From a virus: DNA of 64,000 nt. The notes under the pieces were generated by a model. That model was not told the origin of the DNA. It worked only from the letters and a program-made list of their open reading frames with translations, and did not search any database. A program made the position numbers and the translations under genes. Below are positions 2,426 to 42,492 of this stretch, in pieces. Position 1 is the stretch's first letter. Each line of letters opens with the position of its first letter. The stretch spans positions 60,172 through 124,171 of the IMG/VR virus record IMGVR_UViG_3300048851_000098. The stretch is one strand, 5' to 3'.

Positions 2426-2534
2426 AAGAGGTATTCCAAGTGGCGAGATTTGTAATCAGTGTGGTGGAATGCTGATTCAGACTGGTTCATGTAGAACCTG
2501 CACACAGTGCGGATCGACTTCAGGTTGCGGGTAA
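2418..2534 (+). CDS. 38-aa Cys-rich zinc-ribbon peptide (not in ORF track)
   Basis: GTG start overlaps the portal stop; translates to MLRRGIPSGEICNQCGGMLIQTGSCRTCTQCGSTSGCG*; its TAA overlaps the next ATG (TAATG at 2532-2536). Confidence 0.65.
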   Translation: MLRRGIPSGEICNQCGGMLIQTGSCRTCTQCGSTSGCG

Positions 2535-3256
2535 TGAGATTCGATAGGAACGGTGTTCAACTTGCAAACGTTCCGAATGCTGGCGTATCGCGCCGTAACG
2601 CCGATACTGATTCCGGCAATGCTAATCATGATATTCGTTCTGGTAAATTCGCTCCGGGCGGTAGACCTGATCAAAGACCTACTGCACCGGCGAATGTTGA
2701 TCCGCTCGAATATCAACGAATGCTCGATGCCGTACGCGATGCAGCACGTGAGTTCGATGGCTTCGATGAAGGTGACATCAGAGAATTTGTGAGTGGTCGC
2801 GCTAACGCTCCGGATGTCGTAGATATTAGACAATTCATGGAGATGGTGACAGAGCAGCGCAAGAGTGATCTTGTGGACATGCTCGATCAGATTCTTCGTG
2901 TATATGGCTCCGCTCCGCGAGGACGACGCAAGGTGCGTGTCTCGGCACCAAAGGGATTCATTCGCAAATCTCTCAACGGCCTTGATCCTGATGATCTTGC
3001 CAACGTAATGCACCGCTTGGAAGCTCGCGGTCATACGACTGAAGATGTCGAGAGATTTTTTGAAGGACGTACAAAAAATCTTGATAGAGCCAAAGAGAGA
3101 CGAGATACTTTGACAGCTTCAGATAACTGGTGGGAAGATCCATTTGATTCTGAAGCTACAATCTCATCTGACCAACCGATTATCGTCAACGTGTTCGCTA
3201 ACGATCAGGTGAACCCTGATTTGATTGCAGACGAAATTCGGTTCCGACTCAGATAG
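2534..3256 (+). CDS. Hypothetical head-region protein
   Basis: ORF 2507..3256, likely start at ATG 2534 (TAATG coupling). Contains HDIRSGKFAPGG, like the HPRD..GKF..GG motif of phage head morphogenesis proteins. Confidence 0.6.
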   Translation: MRFDRNGVQLANVPNAGVSRRNADTDSGNANHDIRSGKFAPGGRPDQRPTAPANVDPLEYQRMLDAVRDAAREFDGFDEGDIREFVSGRANAPDVVDIRQFMEMVTEQRKSDLVDMLDQILRVYGSAPRGRRKVRVSAPKGFIRKSLNGLDPDDLANVMHRLEARGHTTEDVERFFEGRTKNLDRAKERRDTLTASDNWWEDPFDSEATISSDQPIIVNVFANDQVNPDLIADEIRFRLR

Positions 3257-15285: not shown

Positions 15286-15519
15286 TCATGGTCTGTTCCG
15301 ATTCTCAGGCAAGTTCTCAGGCAACAGATCGCTGGCAGGCCGCAGGCCGGCGTCTACCTGTCTCTGCACGCGGATCTGCCGACATGGAACACACTCAAAC
15401 GCATTCACTATTCCGCCATCAACGATGAATGTGATGTAACGATCCGTGGGTTCACCACAGTTGTAACATCTCATTGCCTCGATGGCTTTGCGGATTTGTT
15501 CTCTCAGGTCGTCATCCAT
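15286..15519 (-). CDS. Small zinc-finger protein
   Basis: CYNC...CVPC. Confidence 0.55.
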   Translation of the reverse strand: MDDDLREQIRKAIEAMRCYNCGEPTDRYITFIVDGGIVNAFECVPCRQIRVQRQVDAGLRPASDLLPENLPENRNRP

Positions 15520-17153: not shown

Positions 17154-17309
17154 AAATTTACAGAATATTCCTTGAAATCATCCTATAAAGATAGGCAAAA
17201 CATCCAGCAAGAAGACGCTGCCGGGGTGGTCGCGATCTGCGCGGCCCCAGGGGGTTTAGGGCACTCGTTAGGGCAGACCGATCAACCAGGGGGCACCCCC
17301 GACAGCAGC

Positions 17310-17502
17310 ACGCAGGGTGGGATTTGAACCACACGACCTCCGGGTTGTATCGAGTCTCCGAGCGACTACTTGCGCGCCGGCCGGAATACGCAAGTGCTTA
17401 TCATCGGCTGTCCGGCGGTCGATGCCTCGACCCTCCATGTTTACCGATTTCCACCTGCTCTTTGACTCTTCCCGGTGCTCTACCAGACTGAGCTACCCGC
17501 GT
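17310..17502 (-). ncRNA. tRNA-like RNA with ~119-nt structured insertion in the anticodon loop
   Basis: Minus strand: acceptor ACGCGGG/CCTGCGT; D arm GCTC-AGTCTGGTA-GAGC; anticodon stem CCGGG/CCCGG enclosing 126 nt (17345-17470); AGGTC variable loop; GTTCAAATC T loop. No encoded CCA. Confidence 0.8.
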
Positions 17503-17630
17503 ATGTGATGGGTTGCGATTCCAGACCTTACGCAACCCGAATCGGATTCCCTCCCATACTTCACAGCGAATCCGATTGAATGAAGTAGTCTTCAGCCGCC
17601 CGTTACGACGTGGCTCATCTGGACTTCACT
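17503..17630 (-). ncRNA. Candidate structured RNA immediately 5' of the tRNA-like element
   Basis: Three stems on the minus strand (TGAAGT/ACTTCA, AATCGGATTC/GAATCCGATT, GGGTTGCG/CGCAACCC) plus a possible TCCAGA/TCTGGA pseudoknot, in a region with no credible ORF. Confidence 0.45.
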
Positions 17631-17671
17631 CATGCGATGCACTCTACAGTAGCTTGTGGGCTTTGTCAACC

Positions 17672-18850: not shown

Positions 18851-20533
18851 TTAGATGCTCTCCTGAATGAACTGCGCCATGATCTGTGGTGCGCCAGAGT
18901 CGAACCCGACGACATCCAACATGCCTGGATCTCTTGGGTTAGCGATGCTGTATTCGGTAGCTGTGTAGGCAGCAGCAATCAGCTTTGCTCTGATACCGCT
19001 TTCCTTGCGATAGAACTCCAAAGCTTGCGATGCGTGAATCCCACCATTCCACGACTCGTTATCGGTGTGGATCTCGAAAACGTCGTATTCCTTGCCGTTC
19101 TCACGGGCGTACATGATTGGCAGTGCGCAATCTGTAGCACCCATAAACGGAGACATCGCTCGCATCGCGCGATCAACATCATCGAGACGCTGACGGGGGC
19201 TGAGTGCCATCGGTGTCAAGCCAGGGTAGATCTCTCTACCGGAGTTCCGACTGCGGTAATAACTGTCCCCTCCGCTGGTAAACGCAACCACGTCGTAGGG
19301 ATCGCCCGTCTTCATGCTGGCGAGCGACATCGCACCGGCCGCCTCTGCGGCCACGAACCCTTCGATGCCGGCGACGTACCTCGGGTACGCGCCCCACATC
19401 GAACCGGAGATATCGAGCGCAATCAGACGACGTGCGCCAGTCGGCTCCAAATTGTCGAACGCGAGATAGAACGCCTCATCGAGGGCGTCGAGAATCTGAG
19501 GCACAGGTGTCCACGTCTGCCCGCGCCGGCCCACCCCCGCCGCATAGGTCTTTGAGGCCAGCAGCACGTTGGCAGGGTGGATTCGCGCAGCGCTGATTAC
19601 CTCCGCGTCAGTGAGCGTTCTGCGGATGATGTCCGTCTCTCTGCTTGTGCCAGTGATCACACCATCGCGTGTCATGTTGGCGAGATTGCGAATCATCGCC
19701 GTCATGGGCATTTGTGCATTCAGAAGTGCAGACCAGACCTCGGGCTGATTTCTGTGCTCAGTCAGAATCGCCTCGCGTGGCAGACGGAATCTTTCGATCA
19801 GTCTGGCAGTAGCTCTCGGCGTTCTCGCTCTGAGAGCCTTGCCGGCAGCCTGCACGATCTCCGGGAGATCTCTTTTCTTTCCCTTGTATCTGTTGGTCGC
19901 CCACTGGAAGAGCATCTTCATCTCTTCCATATCTTCGTGAACAACTCTCTCGCGATCCTCTGGATTTGGATGTGCGAGACGCAACAGATCCTCGTGCGAC
20001 CATCCGTCGCGCTGTGGATACTTCACGAGCTGGTAGGCGAGCTTCGGAATTGGCTTCTTCAGATACCAATTCGCCACGGCGTTTCTCATACCACGGCCCC
20101 AGCCGGCGAACTGCTCGCGGAACGTAACGAATTGGAACAAATGTGTGCCGATACGGCAGACATTGTTCACGTTCTCGAATGCGTACTGGCGTGTTGCGTC
20201 ATCACCAAGCGCAGAGGCCATGGCGAGAGCGAACACGGCTTGATCATTCTTCGGTGCGCGAGCGTCCATCGAGATTTCAACGATGGTGTCCACGGTTCTG
20301 ATTCCGTCAAGTTTGCAACACTCGATTACGCACTCGGCGTTTTCACGAGTCAGCTTGCGCTCACCCGTGTAGTAGGTCCCGCCCTCGGAACCGAGAATGA
20401 GGAATCGCCGCAGACGAGCAAAGGGATCGATCTCATAGACGAAACCACCAGCGTTGTTCTCGACCTGATCTTGACCAGGGATCGGTTCGCTCTGTGGTGT
20501 TTCTTTTGCTCCGTAATTTCTCAGATACGACAT
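18851..20533 (-). CDS. rsr: Ro60/TROVE + vWA RNA-binding protein (Rsr)
   Basis: QVENNAGGFVYEIDPFARLRRFLILGSEGGTYY, RIGTHLFQF, WGRGMRNAVANWY, LVKYPQRDGWSHEDLLRLAHP, MPMTAMIRNL, RIHPANVL, vWA ALDISGSM, HTDNESW, MLDVVGFDS. Confidence 0.97.
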   Translation of the reverse strand: MSYLRNYGAKETPQSEPIPGQDQVENNAGGFVYEIDPFARLRRFLILGSEGGTYYTGERKLTRENAECVIECCKLDGIRTVDTIVEISMDARAPKNDQAVFALAMASALGDDATRQYAFENVNNVCRIGTHLFQFVTFREQFAGWGRGMRNAVANWYLKKPIPKLAYQLVKYPQRDGWSHEDLLRLAHPNPEDRERVVHEDMEEMKMLFQWATNRYKGKKRDLPEIVQAAGKALRARTPRATARLIERFRLPREAILTEHRNQPEVWSALLNAQMPMTAMIRNLANMTRDGVITGTSRETDIIRRTLTDAEVISAARIHPANVLLASKTYAAGVGRRGQTWTPVPQILDALDEAFYLAFDNLEPTGARRLIALDISGSMWGAYPRYVAGIEGFVAAEAAGAMSLASMKTGDPYDVVAFTSGGDSYYRSRNSGREIYPGLTPMALSPRQRLDDVDRAMRAMSPFMGATDCALPIMYARENGKEYDVFEIHTDNESWNGGIHASQALEFYRKESGIRAKLIAAAYTATEYSIANPRDPGMLDVVGFDSGAPQIMAQFIQESI

Positions 20534-20574
20534 TTCGATCCCTTCGCATATGTGATTTCTTCAGCGCCCCTAAG

Positions 20575-20674
20575 AGGCTACGAACCTCTATCTGTTATCG
20601 GAAAGCTCAGCCGGTGTGCATCGCCTGCGCGTGGCCGCGTTAGAAGCACGACCAGCGAGAGGGACCGGCAGCCT
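20575..20674 (-). ncRNA. Y-RNA-like element 4 (divergent, ~100 nt)
   Basis: Termini pair (AGGCTGC/GTAGCCT), followed by an unpaired C and CCTCT/AGAGG; shares terminal sequence with element 3; lacks TTATCTC. Confidence 0.45.
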
Positions 20675-20716
20675 ATGACACTTTCCAACAGGACTCGTAC
20701 GAGAGTCGGGGCAAGA

Positions 20717-20855
20717 AAGGCTACGAGCAAATTGTTTGGATTCGATATAGGCGCTCTAACCAGGCTGAGCTACACGCCTTTTGAGCGTGACGGGATTCGA
20801 ACCCGCGACCTCCCTCTTATGCGGAGATAATCGATTCCATCCGGCTCGTAGCCTT
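20717..20855 (-). ncRNA. yrlA: Y RNA element 3 with circularly permuted tRNA-like domain (YrlA type)
   Basis: 12-bp terminal stem AAGGCTACGAGC/GCTCGTAGCCTT, bulged C, GGA/TTT, TTATCTC; then T arm GCGGG-TTCGAAT-CCCGT, looped acceptor CACGCT-CAAAA-GGCGTG, D arm GCTC-AGCCTGGTTA-GAGC. Confidence 0.85.
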
Positions 20856-20862
20856 CAAGAGA

Positions 20863-20935
20863 TCTCGCGAACAAATAGTTGGTGATGGGTATTGTCTGTT
20901 CGATAGAGATAACCCAAAACCTCCGGCTCGCGAGA
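20863..20935 (-). ncRNA. Y RNA element 2, minimal (~73 nt, no tRNA domain)
   Basis: TCTCGCGAGC/GTTCGCGAGA stem, bulged C, GGA/TTT, GGGT..AT/ATACCC, TTATCTC, 3' AACTATTTGTTCG; same scaffold as elements 1 and 3. Confidence 0.8.
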
Positions 20936-20957
20936 GCAGTTATTCAGTTGTAAGGGG

Positions 20958-21099
20958 CTGGTCGAACAAATTAGTTGAAAAGCGAGATTTTTTACCACTG
21001 CTCTACCAATTGAGCTACCGACGCTCTTCGAGCCTCGGGCAGGAATCGAACCTGCAACCTTTGGTCCCTGAGATAACGCTTATCGTCCGGCTCGACCAG
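20958..21099 (-). ncRNA. yrlA: Y RNA element 1 with circularly permuted tRNA-like domain (YrlA type)
   Basis: CTGGTCGAGC/GTTCGACCAG stem, bulged C, AAGCG/CGCTT, TTATCTC; T arm GCAGG-TTCGATT-CCTGC, looped acceptor CCGAGGCTC-GAA-GAGCGTCGG, D arm GCTC-AATTGGTA-GAGC. Confidence 0.85.
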
Positions 21100-21513
21100 T
21101 TGTAACTATTTTCTCCTTGACCCTCGCCAATCAGCTCTTCGTGTCTTTCTATTATGAGCCCATTTTCTTGCTGCTCTTCTAGCAGTGGCCCACATAAATC
21201 TACGCTGCTTTTCACTTCTGAATTTACCGCCGCCATGTTTTCTCTGGCGAGAGCGAGAAGCCATTTTCATCTATCTCCCGAAAATCTCTTCCGCCCGACA
21301 TCCGAAGCATACCATGAGATCCGAATCAGATGCAAGGAATCCCTGCAAAAGAAAAGAACTGCCGAGAGATCGCGATACGCGGTGTCTCTCGACAGTCCTT
21401 TTCCCCCAACACAGCGACCAGGCGGGACGTGGTCACTGTCATGGTGAGCCTGCAAGCGAATGCCGGAAGAGGATCAGCAAAACCGGCGGGCTTGCAGGCT
21501 CTCCACGATTATA

Positions 21514-21870
21514 TCAGTCTCTTTCGTGTTCCCGCATGATCTCGTGCGCTTGAATGTCAGCCTCTTCGAGATCATGCACGAGTCTGATTGCTTCTTCGAG
21601 AGTTTCACAGGAATGCACTTCAACATCCCATTTACTTGGCTTTCGACCAGGATATGAAATTTCTCGACCGCTGTCATCCAGAATCAAAATCTCGCCAACG
21701 TGGAAGACTGGTGCTCGCATCACCAATGCAAGCTGAAGAGGAATAGGAGAGAATTTTCCATCATCTCCATATTGCTTTTCAGGATTATCTGAATACAGCT
21801 CGAAAGCAGCAGCCAGATTACCACCTGTCTCTGGTTCGCACACTCTGGTGACAACAGCGAATTCAGCCAT
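21514..21870 (-). CDS. Hypothetical protein
   Basis: Likely start MAEFAV at 21870, overlapping the Fic stop. Confidence 0.6.
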   Translation of the reverse strand: MAEFAVVTRVCEPETGGNLAAAFELYSDNPEKQYGDDGKFSPIPLQLALVMRAPVFHVGEILILDDSGREISYPGRKPSKWDVEVHSCETLEEAIRLVHDLEEADIQAHEIMREHERD

Positions 21871-22336
21871 GATGTCTGTCAAGCGTGGCGTAGTACCAGA
21901 GCTGAAGGAACGGCAGTACGAACGGATCGTTGCCAAGCCTCATCATCTGCCAGGCCCACAGAGCGCGCCCGCTGCGGCCGTTGCCGTCCATGAACGGGTG
22001 GATGCGCTCGTACTCCGCGTGTGCGTCGTACGGGTTGTCCAGCACACCGTTCACAGCGTCTTGTATCCCGTCGAGCCAGTCGGTCAGGTACTTCACGACC
22101 AACGGCCCGCCTTGTGGCGGAACATGATTCCCCACAACCACAGAGTGATGATCCTGCGTCCGCAGTGGTGCGTTGGCTACCGTAGAAACGAATTCTTGTA
22201 TATCTTCGATTCTCAGGTAGTCCTTCATCCACAGATCTTCGTGCGCTCTGATCTCGCTCGCATTCGGACGACGAAAGATTCCCTCGATCCCGTTCGACTC
22301 TGTGATGAATGCTATTACCTTTTCTCTATTCATCAC
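21863..22336 (-). CDS. Fic-domain protein (AMPylase-like)
   Basis: Canonical HPFMDGNGRSGR; N-terminal SNGIEG fits the (S/T)xxxE(G/N) inhibitory motif. Confidence 0.92.
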   Translation of the reverse strand: MMNREKVIAFITESNGIEGIFRRPNASEIRAHEDLWMKDYLRIEDIQEFVSTVANAPLRTQDHHSVVVGNHVPPQGGPLVVKYLTDWLDGIQDAVNGVLDNPYDAHAEYERIHPFMDGNGRSGRALWAWQMMRLGNDPFVLPFLQLWYYATLDRHHG

Positions 22337-41121: not shown

Positions 41122-42492
41122 TTATGCGTCGATGATGTTCCAGAAGAGCGACGTTTCGATACGCTCGTCCAGTTCGATTCTGACGCGGCCCGCGTTCCAA
41201 CGGTCGAGCGTCGCAGCGTCGAGCTTTGTGCGGGCGTTATAGTCGCGCCCTGCGCCCAGGCCCAACGTGTTCATACCGGAAATCGCAATGAAATCCGGAT
41301 GCATCTCAATTCTTCTGCCTGTGGCAGTGTTGAAGAACCACCCGTTCGCGATTGCGGCATTGACGATGAGCAGCAGATTTTCGTTACCAGCGTCCATCTC
41401 ATCGAAGAGAAAGACACCGCCGCCGCCATAGATGCGCTCGAATTGAGAGACAGCGATGTCGCCGGCATTCTGCTTTTCCTGCGCAACGATCATCGCTTCA
41501 TCGTTTCTGCCTTGCGCCAGCAGTGCCATCACGTATTCCGCCGTGCCGTCTGATCCGATCTTCGGACGGCCGTTGAAGGCGCTTGGTGATGTGCCATTGG
41601 TCATTGACACTGCGGCGAAGGGCAATGACATGATCTCGGCAATTTGCATTGCGAGCGTTGTCTTACCAGTGCCCTTCGGTCCGATCAACGCAAGCGGAAT
41701 ACGTTGTTCCACAATCGCCAGGCAGTAGGGCAACGCGGCATGCACTCCGTCACGGCGCTGATCCATTCTGAATGTGGTGACGTCATATTCGTACACATTC
41801 AGACGTTCGCGCACTTCCGGCGGATAGTGCATCGTCAGCGCGTGCTTGATGGCAGGCAAAGGAATTCCGGCCATGAGCATTCTGGCGCCGTACTCGACCG
41901 GACGCAATCCGATCTCGTCCAGCTTGTGACCATCGGCCGCGCGCTCTCTACAGAATTCGCGCAGTGTACGAATCCATTCGAGCAGCCTTGCGGCTTCTCT
42001 TCTGAGCAGGCTTTCTCTCGATTCCTCTTCCTGATCCTGTCCGCTGCCACCGATTCTGTTTGCCTGCAACACCTTCTTTACGCGCTTCAGCTCTCGCATG
42101 AGCGCGTTTCTCTGTGCCTCCATCGGCAGTGGCACATGTCTGCCATCCTGCTTCTTACTGAAGGACAGTGGTCCCCTACCGACACTTGGCAGCAGGGTTG
42201 CGTATGCAGCGTCCACGTCCATGCGGTTCATGCGGAGCGCTCTAGCGAGAATGTCTTGCTTTGAGCCGGGACGGAATCCACTACGTCTTTCGTCGCGTCT
42301 TGGCTCGCCCCCGTTACGATCCTTTTCCGGCGGATGAACACGTCTCAGCTCATCCATGATCGATCTCGCTTGCTCAAGCGTGAGATTTTCGATGATGCCG
42401 CCGTGCGCCTCGATCAGAGGAACTGCGGTTTCCGGAAACTTCTGCTTCAGAAACCGGATCGCGCGAGTCTGTCTATCAGTCGCCTTTGGCAT
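41122..42492 (-). CDS. MoxR/CbbQ/NorQ-type AAA+ ATPase with N-terminal extension
   Basis: GPKGTGKT, VFLFDEMDAG, MHPDFIAISGMNT.G.G, KLDAATLDRW. Confidence 0.88.
   Translation of the reverse strand: MPKATDRQTRAIRFLKQKFPETAVPLIEAHGGIIENLTLEQARSIMDELRRVHPPEKDRNGGEPRRDERRSGFRPGSKQDILARALRMNRMDVDAAYATLLPSVGRGPLSFSKKQDGRHVPLPMEAQRNALMRELKRVKKVLQANRIGGSGQDQEEESRESLLRREAARLLEWIRTLREFCRERAADGHKLDEIGLRPVEYGARMLMAGIPLPAIKHALTMHYPPEVRERLNVYEYDVTTFRMDQRRDGVHAALPYCLAIVEQRIPLALIGPKGTGKTTLAMQIAEIMSLPFAAVSMTNGTSPSAFNGRPKIGSDGTAEYVMALLAQGRNDEAMIVAQEKQNAGDIAVSQFERIYGGGGVFLFDEMDAGNENLLLIVNAAIANGWFFNTATGRRIEMHPDFIAISGMNTLGLGAGRDYNARTKLDAATLDRWNAGRVRIELDERIETSLFWNIIDA

Follow-up and report, generated by a model that had tools for sequence, protein, structure and literature searches.

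Y RNAs are modular, and the bacterial form YrlA resembles a circularly permuted tRNA that has neither a free CCA end nor an anticodon loop (Wang et al. 2018, bioRxiv 10.1101/312249). The structure of its tRNA-like domain has been solved (PDB 6CU1; Wang et al. 2018), and the known roles of Y RNAs are the gating and tethering of Ro60 (bioRxiv 10.1101/312249, PMC12135203). YrlA was found beside rsr, the gene for the Ro60 orthologue, in 254 bacterial species and 22 phages, with its parts in the order T arm, acceptor-like stem, D arm; a GNCGAA-type motif close to its 5′ end probably contacts Ro60 (Chen et al. 2014, PMC4201824). In Mycobacterium smegmatis, YrlA and YrlB lie upstream of rsr and are cut from one precursor (PMC4201824); RNase P cuts the acceptor loop of this YrlA, and the 5′ half then receives CCA (PMC4201824; bioRxiv 10.1101/312249). 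In Salmonella and M. smegmatis, one strand of the Ro60-binding helix, the 5′ one, is all that can be recognised (PMC4201824). In Thermus phage phiLo, Ro60 binds two upstream Y-like RNAs and forms complexes with host PNPase in vitro (PMC12135203). Here we analyse a 64-kb stretch of DNA, the window, which comes from an IMG/VR phage contig of 124 kb (estimated completeness 85%) and makes up its 3′ half. Positions 20719–21099 on its minus strand most probably hold three tandem Y RNA genes of the YrlA/YrlB kind, termed U1, U2 and U3, upstream of the phage rsr. We put the probability of this reading at about 0.8.

The locus resembles that of M. smegmatis in placing a tRNA mimic and a simpler RNA upstream of rsr in the same orientation, with the Ro motif close to the 5′ end. 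It differs in having two tRNA mimics and a hairpin, with a fourth unit elsewhere in the genome, and in being known from genes alone. Its motif is GCCGGA instead of GNCGAA, and both strands of the bulged helix are recognisable, together with a UUAUC box. As in the cluster C1 mycobacteriophages (ET08 in Chen et al. 2014; BeanWater), a phage rsr, whose product is 47% identical, is accompanied by an upstream array. The order of units is short, YrlA, short in BeanWater and YrlA, short, YrlA in the window, and U1 has no BeanWater counterpart. The array shares with YrlA and YrlB of Salmonella Typhimurium a modular build, an L-shaped tRNA mimic with a closed acceptor stem and no anticodon loop, and a smaller second Y RNA. 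Unlike in Salmonella, no RtcB was found in this phage contig, and the Rfam model, which reflects Salmonella sequences, scores the phage units under threshold. The Salmonella Y RNAs are encoded downstream of rsr, in the rsr-yrlBA-rtcBA operon. The phiLo locus also combines a phage Ro60 with Y-like RNAs directly upstream, and the role proposed there is capture of host PNPase. Its Yrl1 and Yrl2 are apparently not described as tRNA mimics (the terms ‘tRNA-like’ and ‘YrlA’ are absent from PMC12135203), and their binding was observed in vitro, whereas the present array is known as genes. Architecture, modularity and the permuted tRNA fold are already published, and the window adds little to them as a discovery. 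The leads beyond the published pattern are two topologies of the tRNA–Y chimera, the size and diversity of the arrays, a UUAUC-bearing handle and an ACAACU spacer motif.

The candidate Y RNA array upstream of rsr

The predicted units, their parts and the adjoining gene are as follows, with scores from the Rfam YrlA model and z values from minimum free energy (MFE) folds.

20958–21099, minus strand: U1, YrlA-type Y RNA, 142 nucleotides (nt); Rfam YrlA 41.7 bits, E 1.2e-7; MFE fold z −2.4
21055–21039, 21038–21018 and 21015–21000, minus strand: T arm, closed acceptor-like stem and D arm of U1
20863–20936, minus strand: U2, short hairpin Y RNA (YrlB/Yrn2-like), 74 nt, with an 18-nt apical payload; MFE fold z −4.2
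20719–20853, minus strand: U3, YrlA-type Y RNA, 135 nt; Rfam YrlA 42.9 bits, E 5.4e-8; MFE fold z −4.1
20806–20790, 20789–20773 and 20770–20753, minus strand: T arm, closed acceptor-like stem and D arm of U3, which also has a V hairpin
18851–20533, minus strand: rsr, Ro60 orthologue, 560 amino acids (aa); Pfam TROVE E 8.8e-48, vWA_Ro60 E 7.2e-45

The next open reading frame (ORF) downstream of the array, also on the minus strand, is rsr, whose start lies 186 nt from the end of U3, inside the distance of about 4 kb that is typical of YrlA. Cluster C1 mycobacteriophages and Gordonia phage BearBQ encode a ‘Ro-like RNA binding protein’ to which the rsr product is 45–47% identical. No credible ORF was found in 20719–21099 itself.

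Searched with reporting by E-value, Rfam YrlA (RF02553) gave full-length alignments to 20718–20851 (U3) and 20976–21082 (U1), and the structure line of both alignments runs from T arm to closed stem-loop to D arm. The MFE folds closed the 5′ and 3′ ends in every unit and produced T, acceptor-like and D hairpins in U1 and U3. The acceptor-like stem of U1 has 4+4 bp around one G·G mismatch and a GAA loop, and that of U3 has 6 bp and a CAAAA loop. Residues of the tRNA elbow are kept, with GG in both D loops and the T loops UUCGAUU (U1) and UUCGAAU (U3). U2 has the makings of a short-hairpin Y RNA (YrlB/Yrn2): a long hairpin formed by its ends, a Ro60-binding motif, a small loop and a position beside rsr. 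A sequence-only reading of the window had described units 1 and 3 as a T arm, an acceptor stem with a 3–5 nt loop and a D arm, their two tRNA domains as different in sequence, and unit 2 as the same scaffold carrying a small hairpin. All of these features are present where it placed them, on the minus strand, and the alignments, loops and folds agree with its description. Its central idea, one Ro-binding scaffold with interchangeable payloads and a permuted tRNA-mimic fold, is right and restates published knowledge (bioRxiv 10.1101/312249).

The resemblance to tRNA parts could have another source. Dimeric tRNAs can imitate YrlA, as Chen et al. warned (PMC4201824), and the U1 domain has blastn matches at tRNA–tRNA junctions in other phages. 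The units might then be debris of tandem tRNA genes, joining the T half of one to the D half of its neighbour, or hairpins arisen by chance, in either case unconnected with Rsr. We consider this origin barely credible. Neither ARAGORN nor Rfam tRNA (RF00005) found a tRNA in 20717–21099, and the only Rfam match at gathering thresholds in the whole window is a tRNA-Glu outside the array. A GCCGGA-N9/10-UUAUC scaffold with paired ends is common to the three units and to the fourth, 39 kb away, and similar arrangements precede Rsr genes in dozens of phage contigs, where a control put false calls at about 9%.

Several points weigh against the assignment as Y RNA genes. The YrlA scores of U1 and U3 lie below the Rfam gathering score of 69. 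No promoter-like site was predicted immediately upstream of the array, and the families of an RNA-repair context (RtcB, CCA-adding enzyme, RNA ligase) were not found in the phage contig, at its 85% completeness. The expression, processing, Rsr binding and partner of the array RNAs are inferred. The source is a metagenome contig, and even in model bacteria such as Salmonella and Mycobacterium no partner of the YrlA tRNA-like module is known (PMC4201824). As to the low scores, all phage relatives tested with RF02553 are also under the threshold, at 31–55 bits, which indicates that the curated YrlA model under-detects this phage lineage.

One handle, different payloads

The closing stems of U1, U2 and U3 are each paired at 10 of 10 positions; the units share the inner CGAGC/GYUCG and differ in every one of the outer five pairs. 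After the closing stem, every unit continues with GCCGGA with a bulged C, an 8–9-bp upper stem and then UUAUCUC. The upper stems are paired at 7/9, 7/9 and 8/9 positions (U1, U2 and U3) despite unrelated sequences. This scaffold, which corresponds to repeat family D1 of the window, carries payloads of 87 (U1), 18 (U2) and 80 nt (U3). GCCGGA is one base off the GNCGAA-type Ro60-binding motif, and both strands of the handle are recognisable in this phage, GC(C)GGA lying opposite UUUG.

Alignment of nine short units from seven phages showed G-N-C-G and GGUUA-C to be invariant and revealed compensatory changes at 13 of the 17 predicted pairs. The covariance model R1 was seeded with nine short units only, U2 among them, and its score for U2 (71.6 bits) is therefore high by construction. 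R1 spans U3 from end to end (47.1 bits, E 2e-7), although the seed member U2 has the same scaffold, and it also spans the BeanWater YrlA from end to end (39.7 bits). Because a model of short units spans both of these YrlA-type RNAs, a single handle with different cargo is supported, with the caveat that U2 is in the seed. The R1 search misses U1 because of its large insert and different upper stem; the scaffold of U1 is shown instead by direct pairing.

The two tRNA-like domains are about 65–72% identical to each other over the T and D regions. The T and D arms of U3 are 92% identical to the BeanWater YrlA, 88% to a unit of contig L008 (L008_a) and 80% to BearBQ. Those of U1 match best the second unit of contig L012 (L012_b, 78%), followed by BeanWater (74%) and a unit of contig L006 (L006_b, 71%). 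Since U1 and U3 are each closer to units of other phages than to one another, this comparison, which covers about 50 alignment columns, suggests two old YrlA paralogue types and not a recent duplication. The sequence-only reading had raised descent of the two domains from different tRNAs; both are about as similar to generic tRNAs of this phage (best for both, tRNA-Lys CUU) as to each other, and the comparison names no parent tRNA.

Vertebrate Y RNAs share a conserved UUAUC box with the stem-bulge RNAs of nematodes (Kowalski and Krude 2015, PMC4726728). The phage units are like these RNAs in their bulged lower helix, their upper stem and the position of the box on the 5′ side of the loop. Against the nematode stem-bulge model (RF01656), U2 scored 30.4 bits (E 5e-4), and short phage units in the other four of five loci scored 35.3, 37.8, 34.2 and 32.4 bits; all are below the threshold of 38. 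Unlike the animal Y RNAs, the units are genes of bacterial viruses without RNA polymerase III features. The likeness between the phage handle and animal Y or stem-bulge RNAs is best taken as a resemblance, which could reflect homology or convergence on Ro60 binding. On a speculative reading, a handle that keeps both bulged-helix strands and UUAUC would suggest that the Y RNAs of animals share their ancestry with those of bacteria or phages.

Related arrays and unpermuted chimeras

A further unit of the same phage lies outside the window.

G000:C1:42013–42107 (= L020:1501–1595), plus strand: fourth Y RNA of the phage; R1 match

This candidate is 39 kb from rsr and directly abuts tRNA-Ala(UGC) in a tRNA cluster. 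Its handle, GCCGAGCCGGA-N9-UUAUCUU ... AAUUGAUUUGCUCGGC, matches the private scaffold of the array, and its payload is a small hairpin and a T arm. ARAGORN also reported a ‘permuted tmRNA’ at G000 41553–42204, which overlaps tRNAs and the fourth Y RNA and is regarded as spurious.

Upstream arrays of several such units were found in all Rsr relatives examined, namely the viral contigs L003–L008 (Rsr 42–47% identical) and the isolated phages BeanWater, BearBQ, Big4, Sparky and Xanthomonas phage Tabio. A scaffold detector run over phage loci called 311 units, compared with 29 in a reversed-sequence control (about 9% false calls). It found 67 arrays that share the strand of an Rsr homologue and lie upstream of it by no more than 1.5 kb; 35 of the 67 had at least three units, the maximum being seven, and several hold two or more full tRNA mimics. 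These counts come from loci sampled by a biased pattern, with duplicate contigs included, and the classes of unit (YrlA, T-arm only, short, other) were assigned by simple regular expressions. The pattern of handle plus T arm matched at least 119 viral stretches. A scan of the collection with CGAGCCGGA-N10-TTATCTC gave six matches; only L012 is a real array, and the other five looked like chance in coding sequence. Compared with these loci, the array of this window is ordinary for such phages.

Other handles were seen as well. Arrays of five or six units at L005:2170–2950 and L006:2310–2940 have the variant GGGUCGG ... GGUUAYC ... ACUUUUUAYC, and include payloads of about 110 nt that are not tRNA-like. 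Xanthomonas phage Tabio (L141, LR743528.1) has about four tandem Y-like units at 2440–3110 on the minus strand, two of them with full T, acceptor-like and D domains. They lie upstream of a short (439 aa), divergent TROVE/vWA protein annotated as hypothetical, and their handle differs (GGUGGUG ... GGUUACUUC).

None of the public phage records examined carries a Y RNA annotation. In BeanWater (L015, MF919494.1), the hypothetical genes gp224 and gp225 (1044–1458) are drawn over three Y RNA units (1085–1161, 1183–1330 and 1360–1435) upstream of the Ro-like gene, and are probably spurious ORFs. Phage Y RNAs are in this way missing from public records or covered by spurious small ORFs, and they score below the Rfam YrlA threshold.

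Two related loci, and possibly the window itself, encode tRNA-shaped RNAs that join a tRNA and a Y handle in the unpermuted order.

L003:2479–2603 and L003:2608–2740 (IMGVR_UViG_3300002220_000207): tRNA-shaped RNAs with free acceptor ends; Rfam tRNA 54.6 and 49.2 bits
L045:4169–4316: further unpermuted chimera, in an rsr-upstream array with canonical short Y RNAs
17305–17505 of the window, minus strand: tentative fifth partner RNA, tRNA-shaped, 1.3 kb downstream of rsr; sequence and fold

In L003 (Rsr 47% identical), both tRNA-shaped RNAs are just upstream of rsr and are followed by two short Y RNAs. Their anticodon loop is swapped for a closed handle, in the order upper-stem 3′ strand, internal loop, short stem and loop, GGCCGA, upper-stem 5′ strand, UUAUC. 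When the L003 and L045 RNAs were cut in the handle loop and rejoined in silico, they gave canonical YrlA folds. The re-permuted sequences align collinearly with U1, U3, BearBQ and BeanWater at z 4–11 relative to shuffles, far above the native order. By this comparison the tRNA-shaped RNAs of L003 and L045 are circular permutants of YrlA, and the chimera occurs with free acceptor ends too. No description of the unpermuted layout was found in the papers searched.

The RNA at 17305–17505 has a 7-bp acceptor stem, a D arm, a T arm and free ends, with a branched insert of 126 nt at the anticodon position; with introns allowed, ARAGORN reported it as a tRNA with a 101-nt insert. The insert contains a GGUCGA-loop-UCGACC closed hairpin and then GCCGGAC..GAUAAGC, which resembles the 5′ strand of U1. 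Re-permuted, it aligned only modestly with YrlA units (z 2–5), and it lacks UUAUC. It may be an unpermuted Y chimera. Comparison of 17300–17640 with isolated phages by blastn gave no match. A promoter-like TTGACA-17-TAGAGT is present at about 17667–17639 on the minus strand, by this RNA. A plus-strand scaffold match at 17374–17478 is antisense to the tRNA-shaped RNA and was taken as chance.

The open forms bear on a proposal of the sequence-only reading, that permuted tRNA mimics without an anticodon loop or a free CCA end offer host tRNA-targeting toxins nothing to cut or modify. It is true that neither U1 nor U3 has an anticodon loop or encodes free acceptor ends, and the phage contig has 27 tRNA genes by ARAGORN, a trait often tied to conflicts over tRNA. 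The permuted topology is, however, a general trait of YrlA, free-living bacteria included, and the M. smegmatis YrlA is opened by RNase P and then receives CCA. Related phages (L003 and L045) encode the same chimera with free acceptor ends, as this phage possibly does at 17305–17505, and U2, like many other units, lacks a tRNA part altogether. Evasion of toxins is on this evidence very unlikely to be what shaped the array.

A broader view of phage rsr loci, as libraries of adaptor RNAs on one Ro60 handle, with the chimera in both permutations, the open form matured as a tRNA and an ancestry shared with the Y RNAs of animals, is speculative as a whole, and we think it possible but doubtful. The open form could mature through RNase P and 3′-end enzymes, possibly ending up CCA-tailed or charged. 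For work on the function of the tRNA-like module, this phage offers a compact natural set of variants for pull-down and binding tests: on a single Rsr handle it combines two different tRNA mimics with a simple hairpin and a unit that has only a T arm. The unpermuted forms of related phages extend the set.

Possible mechanism, spacers and neighbouring features

No terminator-like site was predicted between U3 and rsr on the minus strand, and the array is most likely co-transcribed with the downstream rsr. The transcript would be cut at the single-stranded spacers into separate small RNAs. The ends of each RNA would close into the same bulged helix, with GCCGGA as a variant of GNCGAA/GGUCCGA, and dock on the ring of the phage Rsr. 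The distal modules differ, with an L-shaped tRNA mimic in U1 and U3 and a small hairpin in U2. By analogy with Deinococcus, Salmonella and phiLo, the Y RNAs may stabilise Rsr and gate its cavity. They may also tether Rsr to other proteins, host PNPase being one candidate and a tRNA-binding factor another in the case of the tRNA mimics. Such gating or tethering has been shown for Deinococcus and Salmonella, and in vitro for phiLo (PMC12135203, bioRxiv 10.1101/312249). The outcome could be that decay of structured RNA is redirected during infection. We hold these details with lower confidence than the identity of the units as Y RNAs (about 0.8).

The tRNA-like payloads might instead serve mainly as decoys or sponges, titrating host proteins whose target is the elbow or acceptor stem of tRNAs (modification enzymes, RNase P, defence nucleases), with Rsr only protecting the RNAs from decay. 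Arrays with several different tRNA-like payloads are common, as such a role would favour. It leaves the short hairpin units and the strict linkage to rsr unexplained, and departs from the known functions of Y RNAs, which are the gating and tethering of Ro60. We judge it unlikely, and keep gating and tethering by Y RNAs as the preferred account.

For the spacers, the sequence-only reading had pointed to TTACAACTG on both sides of unit 1 as a possible processing signal.

21097–21105, minus strand: TTACAACTG, copy 1, starting right after the TAG (21108–21106) of a small ORF, with its last 3 nt within the U1 closing stem
20945–20953, minus strand: TTACAACTG, copy 2, in the 21-nt single-stranded spacer between U1 and U2; exact repeat D12

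Both exact copies are in place, the first of them partly inside the stem of U1, and there is no copy before U3. The 64-kb window has 3 copies in all against 0.27 expected, a count reached in 1 of 100 shuffles; the third, at 15466–15458, is in apparent coding sequence and unrelated. The motif is not conserved as a whole in other arrays. However, among 88 unique spacers between units of other phage arrays, 8 contain ACAACT, compared with 0.37 expected, and 12 contain CAACT, compared with 1.5, examples being CACACAACUACAUCG (L029), ACAACUGCACAG (L030) and ACAACUACAUAA (L109). The inter-unit spacers have a median length of 14 nt and are G-poor, and an AACU resembling the spacer motif is also found within the 3′ strand of the handle. 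These counts indicate that a recurrent ACAACU leader/spacer element exists, and TTACAACTG fits it. The element could be a cleavage site, a promoter-like element or something else; a role in processing is weakly supported by the enrichment in other spacers, and the motif is missing before U3. In contig L008 (2760–2920), ACCUUGACAGC occurs in both inter-unit spacers and resembles the CCCUUACAACUG of the window; it may be another form of the spacer motif.

The remaining features lie on either side of the array.

20534–20718, minus strand: leader between U3 and the rsr start, 185 nt, structured; fold z −1.65
21106–21270, minus strand: 54-codon ORF, highly basic, directly upstream of U1; phrog_1375 (unknown function), E 2.7e-5

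A fourth Y RNA within the leader was considered and is unsupported: the stretch has no GCCGGA..UUAUC motif and no R1 match, and its fold z is only −1.65. A Fic/DOC-family protein (Pfam E 7e-9) is encoded at 21863–22336, also on the minus strand, some 0.8 kb upstream of the array.

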